Positions 2,255-7,450 of a stretch of DNA of 64,000 bases are shown here, one piece after another. The notes below the pieces were generated by a model. That model searched no databases, was not told the origin of the DNA, and saw nothing but the letters and a program-made list of their open reading frames with translations. Position 1 is the first letter of the stretch, and each line of letters starts with the position of its first letter. A program made the translations under genes and the position numbers. The DNA comes from Tenacibaculum sp. (GTDB lineage: Bacteria > Bacteroidota > Bacteroidia > Flavobacteriales > Flavobacteriaceae), in NCBI RefSeq assembly GCF_050290165.1, contig NZ_JBNKHD010000003.1, forward strand, positions 85,752 to 149,751. Reading direction: 5' to 3'.

Positions 2255-4855
2255 TTACTTAACAGTATCTTTTTGTTGGCTTTTCTTCTTTTTTCCAAAT
2301 AAACCACCTAAAACGTCTGTTACTTTTTTTACTGTTTCGCCTTTTTTGTTGGTTGTAGAGGTGCTGTCTTTCTTTTTGTCACCTAATAATCCGCCCAAAG
2401 CATTATTTACTAGGTTATCTTTTTGCTGTTGAATCAATTTCTGACTCAATTTAGTAACAGATGAAGATAAATCTGTCGTAACCGACGGATTTGTCATATT
2501 ACCTGTTATGTTAGCAGTAACAGGAACCGTAATATTTTGTTGTTCTTTAGGGCTTAATTTTGAAAGCAGTCCTTGAGCTTCGTTACCTAAATATTTGGCA
2601 GGAACATTAAGAGTAACATTATAACTCATTGTTTTGTCAAAACCATGACTACCACCAACAGTAATTCCAATGTCGTTATATTTTAAATCAAAAGGTTTTA
2701 CCACTACTTTACCATCGCTAAAAGATAGGTGGGTTTTAATGTCTGATAAGTCTAGTTTTGTTAAATCAATAAATGATAATTTATCATTTAATAAACTTAA
2801 AGCTTTTGTTTTTTCAGGATTGATACTAGTAGTTAATAATTCTGCCAATGCTTTACCTGAAACAGAAGCTAAATTTGGAGTAAAATCATCATTTAAACTT
2901 CCTGCTAAATCAATGTCAGAATTTAATTTACCACTCATAGCTCCTGCAATAGGACCTAATGATTGTAATAAATCTAAGCCAGTAAATGATTGTGCAATGT
3001 CGAATGATTTAATTCCTAATTTCATGTCAAAAGTAGGTTGCTTTGGTTGGGTGTTAACTTCTCCGTTTAGTGCAATTTGACCGTTAAAAATATTTGCATC
3101 AACATTTTGAAGTATGGCTTTTTCATCCTTTAAAAGCAATGTTCCTTTAACATTTTGCAGGGTTAGATTGTCATAGTGTACTGTTTTTGCATTAGCCATT
3201 ACAGAACAATCTAAAAATGCAGGAATTTTTAAAGATTCTTTTGGAGCGTTTTCATCAGAAGTTTCCTCTTTCTTTTCAGAGGTTTCGGGATTTTCTTGCA
3301 TAAAATCACTTACATAAAATGCGTTTGAGTTTAATGCGAAGTTTCCTTGTAGTTTTTTGTCAGAAAGTAAAAAACCTAATAAGTTTTTAAGAGTTCCAGT
3401 AGCGTTTAAGTCACTTTTTCCAGTAGTTGCGTCAAACTTAGTTAATGAAACAGTACTTGGAGTGAAATTAACAACGGTATTTTTAATATGAATAGGATTC
3501 ACCAGATCTTCTGAAGAAAAGACAAAATTACTCACCTCCATTTTTCCGCTATTTTTAATACGACTTACAATACTATTTTCAATAGCTTTCATATCAAATT
3601 CAGTATGTAAATCCGCTTTTAAAATTCCACTTAGTTCATTTTCTAAGTTAATAGGGTAAGCTTGGTTTAATTTAGCAAGATTCAATGTTCCTTTTACGGT
3701 AGCATTAACTTTAGGGTTTGTTGTTAAGTTGTATACATTTCCTTTTCCAGAAAAAGTATCTTCATCAATTTTAAAAGATAAGTTATTGATGGAAACAAAG
3801 GTATTTTCAGTTTTACCAGTGGTGTTTTTTATTTGCGCGTCTATATTGATGTTTTGAACACTTTTAGGTAAATCAGGATATTTAAACGAAGCGTTGTTAG
3901 ATTGCATAGTGATGTCTAACTTCGGAATATGATTATCATCAATAATTCCATTTATTTTTCCATTTACACTAAAGTTACCAGTTGTAGAAACATTTGCAAT
4001 ACTTTTGGTATAAGCTTCAGGAATTAACCCTAAAAAGTTTTTAAAATCTGACGAAGGAGTTTTAAAATTAATGTCAACCTCTTGGTTGTTCTCATTCATT
4101 TGAAGATATCCGTCAAAAATTAAAGGCAAGTTATTCAATTTGGCTTCATTTTTTAGGAAAGAAAACTTCTTGTTAGTTAAGTCCATTCCTAAAACAGCAT
4201 CCAATTGTATTTTTTGATTTTTAGCATAGGTGTTTCCATCCATTCCGAATGAAACTAAGGTAGATGTTTGTGTATCTAACTCGGTATTTGATTGTGAAAA
4301 ATCACCACTTCCGCTATGGTTAAATTCTGTTAGCTCAAGAGTTAATTTTCCTTGCTTATCGTTGTACTTTATGGTTGAATTATTAATTGCGTATGAATTA
4401 ATAGACAATCCAAAAGAAGATGGTTCTTCATTTGTAGTTTCTTCTGTTTTTGAAGGCTTTGCAATATCGTAATTTGCATTCCCTTTTTCATCAACTAGTA
4501 CATTTACCAAAGCTTCGTCAATAGTAAATGATTTGATATTTAGCTGTTCAGAAGAAGCTTTAAAAAGATCGGTAAGCCTTAACGCTAAATTTATTTCTTT
4601 AGCATATACTAAAGTATCGCCTTCAAAAGGAGCTTTATTAATAACAGTTAAGTTCGATAACTGTACCGATGCATTTGGGAAATTTCTAAGTAAACTTAAA
4701 CTCGAGTCGCTGAAGTCAACTTGTGCATTTACATTGTCGTTAATGGTGGTTTTCACCAAGTTCATTACTTTATCTTGGAATAACAGGGGAATGCTAATTA
4801 AAAGGATAAAGAAAAAAATAATAACGCCTAATACTATTTTATAAATCTTTTTCAT
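2255..4855 (-). CDS. AsmA family / AsmA-like C-terminal region protein (repeating beta-groove envelope protein)
   Basis: 866 aa with a single N-terminal TM anchor (IVLGVIIFFFILLISIPLLF), beta-rich repeats and a typical AsmA C-terminus (GSHGFDKTMSYNVTLNVP). Confidence 0.8.
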   Translation of the reverse strand: MKKIYKIVLGVIIFFFILLISIPLLFQDKVMNLVKTTINDNVNAQVDFSDSSLSLLRNFPNASVQLSNLTVINKAPFEGDTLVYAKEINLALRLTDLFKASSEQLNIKSFTIDEALVNVLVDEKGNANYDIAKPSKTEETTNEEPSSFGLSINSYAINNSTIKYNDKQGKLTLELTEFNHSGSGDFSQSNTELDTQTSTLVSFGMDGNTYAKNQKIQLDAVLGMDLTNKKFSFLKNEAKLNNLPLIFDGYLQMNENNQEVDINFKTPSSDFKNFLGLIPEAYTKSIANVSTTGNFSVNGKINGIIDDNHIPKLDITMQSNNASFKYPDLPKSVQNINIDAQIKNTTGKTENTFVSINNLSFKIDEDTFSGKGNVYNLTTNPKVNATVKGTLNLAKLNQAYPINLENELSGILKADLHTEFDMKAIENSIVSRIKNSGKMEVSNFVFSSEDLVNPIHIKNTVVNFTPSTVSLTKFDATTGKSDLNATGTLKNLLGFLLSDKKLQGNFALNSNAFYVSDFMQENPETSEKKEETSDENAPKESLKIPAFLDCSVMANAKTVHYDNLTLQNVKGTLLLKDEKAILQNVDANIFNGQIALNGEVNTQPKQPTFDMKLGIKSFDIAQSFTGLDLLQSLGPIAGAMSGKLNSDIDLAGSLNDDFTPNLASVSGKALAELLTTSINPEKTKALSLLNDKLSFIDLTKLDLSDIKTHLSFSDGKVVVKPFDLKYNDIGITVGGSHGFDKTMSYNVTLNVPAKYLGNEAQGLLSKLSPKEQQNITVPVTANITGNMTNPSVTTDLSSSVTKLSQKLIQQQKDNLVNNALGGLLGDKKKDSTSTTNKKGETVKKVTDVLGGLFGKKKKSQQKDTVK

Positions 4856-4946
4856 TGTGAATAAAGTTTGTCATGTAATACTAACGAACAAAGTTCAACA
4901 ATTATTTGTAAAAAGAAAGTCAATGAAATGATAAATTTTCTTTTGG

Positions 4947-4954
4947 TAATTTTG
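4947..4954 (+). promoter_or_regulatory. -7 promoter element (TAATTTTG) for queG
   Basis: Matches TAnnTTTG, 20 nt upstream of the TTG start. Confidence 0.6.
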
Positions 4955-4974
4955 CGCTGATAAAATCACGTATT

Positions 4975-5901
4975 TTGAACCAGAAACAACAATATTCAAA
5001 CTTTATTAAAACACAGGCAAAACGCTTGGGGTTTTTGGGGTGCGGTATTGCAAAAGCTGATTTTTTAGAGGATGAAGCTCCGCGATTAGAAAAATGGTTA
5101 GAAAATGGATATCATGGAGAGATGCATTACATGGAAAACCATTTTGATAAACGCTTAGATCCAAGGTTGTTGGTAGAGGGTTCAAAATCGGTGATTTCTT
5201 TGTCGTATAACTATTTTCCAGCCGAAGTTCAGCAAGAAGGAAGTTATAAGATTTCTAAATATGCTTACGGACAAGATTATCATCATATCATCAAAGATAA
5301 ATTGCGAGAATTATTGCAGTTGATTAATGATGAAATAGGAGAAGTTTCAGGACGTTGTTTTGTTGATTCTGCCCCTGTGTTAGAACGTGCTTGGGCAGCA
5401 AAATCAGGGTTAGGTTGGAATGGGAAACACTCGTTATTAATTCAAAAGCAACAAGGATCCTTTTTCTTTTTAGCTGAATTGATTATTGATTTAGAACTCG
5501 AATACGACACGCCTTTTAAAACAGATCATTGTGGTAGTTGTACTCGTTGTATTGATACGTGTCCAACACAAGCAATTTTACCTAATAATACAGTAGATGG
5601 GAGTAAATGTATCTCATATTTAACGATTGAGTTAAAAGATGCAATTCCATCAGGGTTTGAAGGACAACTGCAAGATTGGATGTTTGGGTGTGATGTGTGT
5701 CAAGATGTATGTCCTTGGAATCGTTTTTCAAAACCACATGAAGAATCTTTGTTTACACCGCAAGAAAGTTTATTGAATATGACAAAACGTGATTGGCAAG
5801 AATTAACTCAAGAAACGTTTAGTAAAGTATTTAAAAAATCGGCAGTAAAGAGAACTAAGTTTTTAGGGCTCTCAAGAAATATTGATTTTTTAAAAAAATA
5901 A
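4975..5901 (+). CDS. queG: tRNA epoxyqueuosine(34) reductase
   Basis: Two 4Fe-4S motifs ([13 protein letters not shown]; [11 protein letters not shown]), plus YAYGQDYH and [12 protein letters not shown] start. Confidence 0.95.
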
Positions 5902-5932: not shown

Positions 5933-6571
5933 TTATTTTGGATCAGTTTCTCCGAAGAAAAACCAGTTGATTCCTTTTTTAATAATTCCACTCTCTTTAG
6001 AAGGAGCATTATCATTGTTTTCTTTTGAGTTAGAAGCTTCTTGTTCAAATAAATTTACTACAAAATCTTCATAAGATGAATTTACTTCTTCTTGAAGGTA
6101 AGAGTTAAAATACAATTCACTTGCTTTTTCTCCTTTAACTTTTTCAATTTCTAACAAAGTTTTGTATAAAGGTTCAATTTTTTTCACAACATTTTCAGGT
6201 AAAGCTTTTCTTCTTCCTGTATAACCTGTAATTTTTCCTGTTTCATCTTTTTCTACATCAAAATCAGTAATAACCCAGTAATATCTACCTGTTCTTGTTA
6301 AGTTTTTAACAATAGCGTGAAAGTTGTTTCCCTGTTTTAGATTATCCCATAATACCTTAAATACAACTTTAGGCATATCTGGGTGTCTAATAATATTATG
6401 AGGTTCTCCAATCAGTTCTATTTTATTGTACTCTGAAGCTTCTTCAAAGGTGTCGTTCATGTATAAAATAGTTCCAACAGAATCAGTTTTACTAATAATG
6501 GTTTTTGATTTGTCCCACTTAACCTCCTCATCTATGACTTTGGAAGGTTTAAGAGTGTCATTTGTGTTCAT
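5933..6571 (-). CDS. Stand-alone Aer/CetB-type PAS domain protein (paralog 1)
   Basis: ISKTD..G.I.Y.ND.F, GEPHNIIRHPDMPK, LW, VKN and YYWV match the FAD-binding PAS of Aer. There is no TM, HAMP or kinase domain. Confidence 0.85.
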   Translation of the reverse strand: MNTNDTLKPSKVIDEEVKWDKSKTIISKTDSVGTILYMNDTFEEASEYNKIELIGEPHNIIRHPDMPKVVFKVLWDNLKQGNNFHAIVKNLTRTGRYYWVITDFDVEKDETGKITGYTGRRKALPENVVKKIEPLYKTLLEIEKVKGEKASELYFNSYLQEEVNSSYEDFVVNLFEQEASNSKENNDNAPSKESGIIKKGINWFFFGETDPK

Positions 6572-6615
6572 TTATGTTTTTTTAATAGTTTCGGGTAGCT
6601 TTTTTTAAAGGTCAG

Positions 6616-6623
6616 CAAATGTA
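6616..6623 (-). promoter_or_regulatory. -7 promoter element (TACATTTG) for PAS paralog 1
   Basis: CAAATGTA on + strand, 44 nt upstream of the start. Confidence 0.55.
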
Positions 6624-6765
6624 AAGCTTTTTTACTTCAAGAGTAAACTACTTTTTTTTTAAAAAAGGTTAAAAAAAGTTAAAGTTATAATTAAGAAATA
6701 GAAAAATATTGTGCCAGCACTTTATGTTGAGAATAAGGGAAGAGTACAAAGTGTTTTTAAATAAA

Positions 6766-6797
6766 AAAGGATAGAGTTCTTAAAAACTCTATCCTTT
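6766..6797 (-). terminator. Intrinsic terminator after PAS paralog 2
   Basis: 13-bp stem AAAGGATAGAGTT/AACTCTATCCTTT with a 6-nt loop, followed by a U-tract on the minus strand. Confidence 0.8.
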
Positions 6798-6832
6798 AAT
6801 GTATACTGGTTAAGGGAATTTATAGGGGGTAT

Positions 6833-7450
6833 TTATTTTGGATCAGTTTCTCCGAAAAAGAACCAGTTTAACCCCTTTTTTATAGGACTTGTTTCGTTTT
6901 TAATTTTTTCAGCTTCTTCTTTAGAAAGTTCTTCATTAAATAAATCAACAACAAATTCATTATAGGTTTTACCAACCTCTTCTTTTAAGTAAGCATCAAA
7001 ATACATCTCACTTGCTTTTTCTCCTTTTAATTTTTCAATGTCTAAAAGTGTTTTGTATAGAGGCTCTACTTTTTTAACAACACCACTTGGTACCGCTTTT
7101 CTTCTCGCTGTATACCCAACAATATTACCTTCTTCGTCTTTGTCTATGGTAAAGTCGGTAATTACCCAGTAGTATCTACCAGTTCTCGTTAGGTTTTTAA
7201 CTATAGCATGAAAGTTTTCACCTTTTTTTAAGGCATCCCATAATACTTTAAAAGCTACTTTAGGCATGTCTGGGTGACGAATAATATTATGCGGTTCACC
7301 CACTAACTCAATAGTGCTGTACTCGCAAGTTTTAGAGAAAACATCGTTTGCGTATAATATGGTTCCGTAAATATCTGTTTTACTTACAATGGTTTTTGTT
7401 TTGTCCCATTGTACTTCTTCGTCAATAATGTGTCTTAATGTAGTTTCCAT
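6833..7450 (-). CDS. Stand-alone Aer/CetB-type PAS domain protein (paralog 2)
   Basis: Same PAS motifs as 5933-6571 and the identical C-terminal NWFFFGETDPK. Confidence 0.85.
   Translation of the reverse strand: METTLRHIIDEEVQWDKTKTIVSKTDIYGTILYANDVFSKTCEYSTIELVGEPHNIIRHPDMPKVAFKVLWDALKKGENFHAIVKNLTRTGRYYWVITDFTIDKDEEGNIVGYTARRKAVPSGVVKKVEPLYKTLLDIEKLKGEKASEMYFDAYLKEEVGKTYNEFVVDLFNEELSKEEAEKIKNETSPIKKGLNWFFFGETDPK

Follow-up and report, generated by a model that had tools for sequence, protein, structure and literature searches.

Aer of Escherichia coli carries a PAS domain, an F1 region, a membrane hairpin, a HAMP domain and a methyl-accepting chemotaxis protein (MCP) signalling domain in a single chain, and CetB and CetC of Campylobacter jejuni and CetB2 of Magnetospirillum gryphiswaldense are PAS subunits of bipartite energy-taxis receptors. 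In Aer, residues R57, H58 and D60 are required for binding of flavin adenine dinucleotide (FAD) (PMC2628428). CetB2 has been shown to contain FAD, which is surface-exposed and electro-active, and its contact residues include H54, N55, R58, F67, W71, N86, R117 and V100 (PMC12442639). The literature that we found treats CetB only within CetA/CetB energy taxis. Here we analysed a 64,000-nucleotide stretch of a Tenacibaculum sp. genome (contig NZ_JBNKHD010000003.1, positions 85,752 to 149,751; hereafter the window), in which two adjacent genes, paralog 1 (P1) and paralog 2 (P2), encode small stand-alone proteins related to these sensors. They belong to a well-supported sister clade of CetB whose members end in a conserved tail and lack an adjacent MCP gene.

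P1 and P2 are 70% identical across 204 aligned residues, carry the motif series PHNIIRHPDMP...W...VKN, and both end in KKG[IL]NWFFFGETDPK, with the last 11 residues identical and the acidic linker before the tail divergent. Pfam recognised only PAS_3, PAS and PAS_9 in the two products, and neither Pfam nor NCBIfam models detected a transmitter, HAMP, MCP, kinase, DNA-binding or other output domain. The initial annotation had described the genes as tandem PAS paralogs with a shared tail and no output domain; both open reading frames (ORFs) are present and the description stands. They are the sole members of the family in their genome, the tail motif occurs in no other frame, and Tenacibaculum is the source of all their closest proteins. 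Modelling with AlphaFold2 on a 42-sequence alignment (mean predicted local distance difference test score (pLDDT) 89.6, predicted template modelling score (pTM) 0.82) showed a PAS fold at about residues 11–123 followed by three helices; pLDDT stays above 93 as far as about residue 180. The helices are followed by a disordered segment, which leads to a short, low-confidence helix at residues 202–206. Relatives, including those adjacent to MCP genes, align to the query as far as about residue 174, which covers the PAS domain and the helical extension. A Foldseek search found no counterpart of this extension among PDB matches.

Among solved structures, the PAS domain of E. coli Aer (8dik, E 1.6e-26) came closest in sequence; it shares 40–44% identity with P1 and P2, and the PAS part of the model superposes on it with a TMt of 0.93 and a root-mean-square deviation of 1.2 Å (Foldseek). 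The equivalents of Aer R57, H58 and D60 are identical in both paralogs, Aer F66, W70 and N85 are conserved, and seven of the eight CetB2 FAD-contact residues (H54, N55, R58, F67, W71, N86 and R117) are identical in P1 and P2. The contact residues of P1 are H58, N59, R62, H63, D65, F71, W75, N90 and R121, and the conserved FAD residues are invariant in the 42-sequence family alignment. These matches in sequence, fold and pocket residues bear out the Aer-type identity first assigned to the domain, and from residue conservation and fold we strongly infer that P1 and P2 bind FAD, which we hold to be highly probable. The FAD-binding PAS redox sensors NifL (2gj3, E 5e-06) and MmoS (3ewk, E 3e-13), also among the PDB matches, are far more distant from P1 and P2 than Aer is; their PAS domains, unlike those of P1 and P2, are fused to kinase-like or other outputs, and they lack the membrane tether proposed for P1 and P2. 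Of the parts that follow the PAS domain in the Aer chain P1 and P2 have none; where Aer has its membrane anchor, they have the three-helix extension and a putatively amphipathic tail. LOV photochemistry was rejected, as both proteins lack the cysteine (NIIRHPD stands where an NCRFL motif is expected) and NCBIfam LOV models scored far below their cut-offs. The earlier suggestion that the two paralogs are differently tuned stays pure speculation, because the residues that differ occupy positions that are variable across the family.

Exhaustive searching of 1.8 billion representatives with HMMER returned many stand-alone proteins of 170–310 aa that match over the PAS domain and the extension, the latter being conserved as LYxxLLxIExxxGxxASExYLxxFLEExxxxYxEF. 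We scanned one genome per species, giving 80 loci, extracted the ORFs and clustered their neighbours. The proteins fell into three classes by C-terminus. A tail-less class ending in ...SY[DE]EF[IV]xSL (39 loci in Proteobacteria, Campylobacterota and others) had an adjacent MCPsignal gene (Pfam) at 32 of 39 loci, often with a CZB domain and in most cases overlapping and immediately downstream; this corresponds to the bipartite arrangement known from CetB/CetA. In the tail-bearing class (31 loci in Flavobacterium, Aquimarina, Filimonas and many Campylobacterota), no MCP gene was found within 6 kb at any locus. The third class (9 loci) ends in ...EEIHRFY and lies at the end of nos clusters beside NosL/NosY. 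Tail and MCP adjacency were thus strongly anticorrelated (0/31 tail-bearing vs 32/39 tail-less loci; Fisher p = 2e-13), and the same held inside Campylobacterota (0/16 vs 12/15; p = 3e-6).

A quick tree built on the PAS domain and extension, with the tails left out, placed the MCP-adjacent proteins apart from the tail-bearing and nos-type ones, a split with 99% support in the Shimodaira–Hasegawa-like approximate likelihood ratio test (SH-aLRT), and the label "tail" takes just two changes on it. P1 and P2 fall within the tail-bearing clade, next to Flavobacterium and Filimonas sequences, and this placement therefore identifies them as CetB homologues of a sister clade outside the CetB group proper. 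They share with CetB-type proteins a stand-alone Aer-type PAS domain, a similar size, the FAD-contact residues and the C-terminal helical extension, and CetB is also a peripheral membrane protein, as we propose for P1 and P2. Unlike CetB, they have no CetA-type HAMP-MCP gene, adjacent or distant, and no che genes in the genome; their neighbours are queG and maeB, with no co-located CetA-type transmembrane (TM)-HAMP-MCP gene. The linker and basic/aromatic C-terminal tail of P1 and P2 are in turn lacking in true CetB proteins. The tail-bearing clade thus appears to have dispensed with the adjacent CetA-type HAMP-MCP transducer, with the tail standing in its place. Targeted searches found no literature on tail-bearing or Bacteroidota CetB-like proteins, and neither Bacteroidota nor tail-bearing orphans appear in a 2026 review of aerotaxis receptors.

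The EEIHRFY subgroup (L016, L017, L022, L023, L028-L030, L033 and L043; e.g. L016:8001-8522) is monophyletic and nested in the tail-bearing clade, and its genes in Campylobacterota come immediately behind NosY- and NosL-like genes, at the 3' end of nos (nitrous oxide (N2O) reductase accessory) clusters. Such a position suggests a redox-sensing or electron-transfer role tied to N2O respiration for the subgroup. It also raises an alternative for P1 and P2, namely that they are membrane-associated flavoproteins with a catalytic or electron-transfer function, exchanging electrons between FAD and quinone or with a respiratory or N2O-reductase-type complex. The surface-exposed, electro-active FAD of CetB2 (PMC12442639) and the occurrence of this nested subgroup beside NosL/NosY at nos cluster ends are in its favour, but the characterised FAD-PAS domains of the Aer, CetB and NifL type are all sensors and no tie to respiratory genes is seen at the Tenacibaculum or Flavobacterium loci, which makes an electron-transfer role improbable.

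Three further observations concern the wider family. P0122 (607 aa) contains three consecutive modules of PAS domain plus extension in one chain and ends in KKGMFQKWFN, making it a multi-module tail-bearing sensor. A homologue on contig CAVBJB010000001.1 (L002), labelled Lachnospiraceae, nests in the Flavobacterium/Filimonas group with 58% identity and the tail KGFFSRFFGK, and either mis-binning or horizontal acquisition of the contig is probable. Genomes of another family that have no CheW carry a tandem pair of PAS-only genes of about 160 aa (L106:3537-5433 and L107:3191-5080), whose products are without the full extension or a tail; the pair is preceded by a Roadblock/LC7 gene and a gene for CZB (zinc-binding) alone. 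The CZB domain is present on CetA-like MCPs as well (L039) and is fused to the PAS domain and extension in P0199 and P0266.

We then searched the genome that carries P1 and P2 for a possible signalling partner. Its assembly (3.26 Mb, 99.6% complete) contained no MCPsignal, CheW or CheR, confirming for this genome the absence of classical chemotaxis that had been assumed for gliding flavobacteria. The single HAMP match was sub-threshold and lay within an ordinary TM-HAMP-HisKA-HATPase kinase. We rejected this kinase as a partner candidate, as it was found in 41/41 genomes of the genus and its co-occurrence with the PAS genes is uninformative because it is universal there.

It is also conceivable that P1 and P2 are CetB orthologues feeding a diverged chemotaxis- or MCP-like transducer encoded elsewhere. 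In the same phylum, lineages that have CheW carry either a split CetB/MCP pair or the PAS domain and extension fused to a diverged MCP-like domain; CheW is missing from Flavobacterium genomes that have tail-bearing copies. The fusions, found in one family, join the PAS domain and extension to a C-terminal domain of about 270 aa that Pfam does not recognise and that carries the MCP-hairpin-like motifs LSLNAQIGSSKL...SLSVVAEKMGEQS (L098:2627-7102, with three tandem genes; L099:3572-4966; L100:3671-5056; L101:2730-4178). Their genes lie a few kb from CheW/CheA-like genes, and the proteins therefore resemble Aer-like receptors that are soluble and whose signalling domain has diverged strongly. Diverged transducers invisible to Pfam therefore do exist in the chemotactic lineages of the phylum. 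However, hidden Markov model (HMM) and tblastn searches with the diverged domain found no homologue in the P1/P2 genome, MCPsignal, CheW and CheR are all absent from it, and P1 and P2 belong to a clade in which an adjacent MCP never occurs. A hidden transducer is accordingly very improbable.

Most stand-alone relatives end in a basic/aromatic motif such as KKKGVFSRLFGK, TRKSFLKSLFGG, KERKSFFKRIFGY or KKKSIFTRLFLRGK, and further examples include KKGFFSRLFGR, KKGVFSRLFGK and RKSFLKSLFGG. The motif persists while the linker before it varies from 0 to about 110 residues, the longer relatives having low-complexity linkers of 60–110 residues. These tails resemble the membrane-targeting sequence (MTS) of E. 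coli MinD, KGFLKRLFGG (PMC5471200), with which the Filimonas/Flavobacterium tail KKGFFSRLFGR shares 7 of 10 positions. Both are C-terminal, stand behind a flexible segment, and consist of basic residues followed by F/L at i, i+1, i+4 and i+5 and then Gly; the protein ahead of the tail is unrelated in MinD, and the likeness is one of convergent motifs, not homology. The hydrophobic pattern is clear in the Flavobacterium, Filimonas and Campylobacterota relatives, whereas the Tenacibaculum tail KKGLNWFFFGE has an aromatic run in place of the clean amphipathic pattern. The hydrophobic moment of the P1/P2 tail was at least that of the MinD MTS, a measure that failed to separate tails from ordinary helices. 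The genome has no true MinD and hence no internal comparator for the tail. Among the best 120 clusters at 90% identity, all Tenacibaculum where named, the core KK[GS]LNWFFFG[DE] was nearly universal, with the last residues varying between ETNPK and DFL types. The tail is thus conserved in orthologs beyond this duplication, as the initial annotation had proposed checking, and the proposal that it docks on a membrane gains from the MinD-like amphipathic motif at the same place in the wider family. The tail is a functional conserved element that likely serves membrane docking, and we consider that it probably binds the membrane directly.

The tail may instead be a short linear motif that binds a specific protein, such as a respiratory complex, a kinase or the gliding motor, and not lipid. 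In enteric chemoreceptors, a C-terminal NWETF pentapeptide tethers CheR/CheB. The strict conservation of KK[GS]LNWFFFG within Tenacibaculum, its position behind a flexible linker and the likeness of its N-W-x-x-F to NWETF would fit such a motif. A CheR tether itself was rejected, because the genome is without CheR. Outside the genus, moreover, only the physico-chemical pattern of the tail is kept, as is the case for lipid-binding amphipathic helices, and the family pattern is close to the MinD MTS. On balance we regard a purely protein-binding tail as rather unlikely.

We next considered the age of the duplication and the selection acting on the two copies. P1 and P2 belong to two clades that are well separated and that both include orthologues from other species, and the synonymous divergence (dS) between them is 1.43. 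The ratio of nonsynonymous to synonymous divergence (dN/dS) among orthologues was 0.08–0.12 for P1 and 0.04–0.05 for P2; P2 is the more constrained paralog, and genomes with a single copy carry a P2-like gene. These findings indicate that the duplication is old and that purifying selection acts on both copies. Within the core of the tail, P1 and P2 show synonymous differences (AAA/AAG, GGA/GGG and TTT/TTC), from which we conclude that selection maintains the tail. We rejected recent gene conversion as an explanation for the identical tails in view of these synonymous differences, the genus-wide core, the separate old clades and the dS. Only the last seven codons of P1 and P2 are identical at the DNA level (about 0.035 by chance); there may have been very local conversion there, which is irrelevant to the conservation of the tail. 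The same data bear on the idea that P1 and P2 are functionless leftovers of a lost energy-taxis system. Such an origin could account for the lack of an output domain, of a partner and of an informative gene context, but it is hardly credible given dN/dS values of 0.04–0.12, the retention of both copies since an old duplication, the conserved terminator and -7 box described below, and the conservation of the tail and FAD residues across genera and phyla.

Taken together, we modestly favour the reading that P1 and P2 are peripheral-membrane FAD redox sensors of the tail-bearing CetB sister clade that signal to a non-MCP partner. They would be small cytoplasmic flavoproteins of the Aer/CetB class, in which the redox state of the cell or the respiratory chain is read out by the FAD-binding PAS domain, as in Aer and CetB2. 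The three-helix extension would pack on the PAS domain, and the flexible acidic linker would lead to the basic/aromatic C-terminal segment, which may anchor the protein peripherally to the inner face of the cytoplasmic membrane like the MinD MTS; Aer and CetB also act at the membrane. Since this Tenacibaculum is without chemotaxis machinery, the signal would have to go to a non-Che partner, or membrane binding would itself be the output. In the first case, the extension and the PAS surface could hand the signal by protein–protein contact to a partner that is probably membrane-associated; in the second, redox-dependent oligomerisation could alter membrane avidity and make membrane binding itself redox-dependent. 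MinD membrane binding depends on dimerisation. More tentatively, the tail-bearing clade as a whole might be a chemotaxis-independent energy sensor, in which a membrane-tethered FAD-PAS domain senses respiratory-chain redox state and steers a non-Che target in Bacteroidota. That target could be the gliding/type IX secretion system (T9SS) motor, which is proton-driven, a membrane kinase, or a complex of respiration or metabolism, and such control could run through redox-gated dimerisation and membrane avidity. The two old paralogs could form hetero-dimers or cover two redox windows.

Several points weigh against the favoured reading. The eighth FAD-contact position, V100 in CetB2, is Phe in both P1 and P2. 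Compared with the MinD-like tails found in other genera, the Tenacibaculum NWFFF tail is hydrophobic more uniformly and its amphipathic character is less clear, AlphaFold2 gives it only a short helix of low confidence, and so strict a sequence within the genus might just as well reflect contact with a specific protein. In addition, the only HAMP protein of the genome, being universal in the genus, yields no co-occurrence signal, and clustering of the neighbours of 80 + 16 + 14 loci revealed no partner and no conserved non-housekeeping neighbour for the tail class.

When we examined the distribution of the family, about 15 of 61 genomes of the (GTDB) genus carried it, with 1–3 copies each, and these were exactly the nearest relatives of the P1/P2 genome as judged by identity of a universal kinase. 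The family is clade-specific and not scattered, being confined to one subclade of a genus that uniformly bears sprA. Across the phylum, a match was found in 30 of 401 sampled genomes (15 of 179 genera). In PAS-positive genomes of the genus the syntenic locus reads SprA-RuvA-MaeB, one or two PAS genes, and QueG - 866-aa protein - DUF5686. PAS-negative members keep SprA-RuvA-MaeB, and the block [866-aa protein - QueG - PAS] alone is missing; in two of four such members examined, DUF5686 directly abuts MaeB. QueG gave no match at E<=1e-40 in six PAS-negative members. At this locus (window 2255-5901; genus loci L119-L122), the PAS genes were apparently gained or lost together with QueG and the 866-aa protein, which has no Pfam match. 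Third copies and Flavobacterium homologues stand amid unrelated housekeeping genes (PrmC, GNAT, kynureninase, SerA, fumarase, MFS, RecG, RuvX and DapD).

The initial annotation had tentatively tied the tail to the gliding/T9SS machinery by way of the nearby sprA. We rejected this link: SprA-RuvA-MaeB is syntenic without the PAS genes, the family is found in one subclade of the genus, and the Flavobacterium homologues lie beside RuvX/DapD, fumarase, MFS and RecG, among others. The proximity of sprA is incidental, because SprA-RuvA-MaeB is kept in genus members that have no PAS genes.

The coordinates of the two genes and their signals are given in Table 1. In a five-genome alignment of the spacer, the hairpin between P2 and P1 is preserved through compensatory changes in the four further genomes, all from the genus. 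TAnnTTTG alone occurs in the window at chance frequency (98 found vs 110 expected), and the extended form TAnnTTTGC is invariant at the P1 upstream position in the five genomes. The conserved hairpin and the invariant TAnnTTTGC therefore make separate transcription of P1 plausible, and the terminator between the paralogs and the -7 element of P1, both noted at the outset, are confirmed as present and conserved. Between the -7 box and the start codon, the P1 leader contains a segment ACC(A/C)CCCGAA(T/A)AACTATTAAAACA (6572-6615, minus strand) that is conserved in the five genomes. No riboswitch or other RNA element was found in the 261-nt intergenic region, and no Rfam match came near threshold, P1 leader included. 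The palindromic hairpin between the convergent queG and P1 is likely a bidirectional terminator.

Table 1. Positions of the P1 and P2 genes, their protein regions and nearby transcription signals in the window.
Feature	Position	Strand	Description
P1 coding sequence	5933..6571	-	212 aa; N-cap, Aer/CetB-type PAS, three-helix extension, linker, tail
P1 PAS domain	6203..6541	-	~residues 11-123; includes PHNIIRHPDMP (6371-6403)
P1 three-helix extension	6014..6196	-	helices 126-146, 148-163, 167-186; common to CetB-like proteins
P1 acidic disordered linker	5987..6013	-	pLDDT <55; length and sequence variable among relatives
P1 tail IIKKGINWFFFGETDPK, putative membrane-targeting sequence	5936..5986	-	
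P2 coding sequence	6833..7450	-	205 aa; architecture as in P1
P2 PAS domain	7094..7432	-	~residues 7-119
P2 tail PIKKGLNWFFFGETDPK	6836..6886	-	
Intrinsic-terminator-like hairpin after P2	6766-6797	-	14-bp stem and T-run
Bacteroidota-type -7 box TACATTTG (TAnnTTTG) before P1	6616-6623	-	45 nt upstream of P1 ATG
Palindromic hairpin between convergent queG and P1	5895..5928	.	perfect 15-bp stem, A/T runs on both sides

Aer/CetB-type flavin sensors have so far been understood solely as inputs to flagellar chemotaxis. Here, the same sensor module is under strong purifying selection in bacteria without chemoreceptors, CheW or CheR, with a putative membrane anchor in the place of the transducer. The anticorrelation between tail and adjacent transducer provides a testable evolutionary rule. 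If the proposed reading is true, it would define a separate branch of energy sensing that is widespread, occurring in Flavobacteriaceae, Chitinophagaceae and many Campylobacterota, and would offer an entry point to the perception of O2 and redox state in gliding, non-flagellated Bacteroidota, including the genus Tenacibaculum with its fish pathogens.

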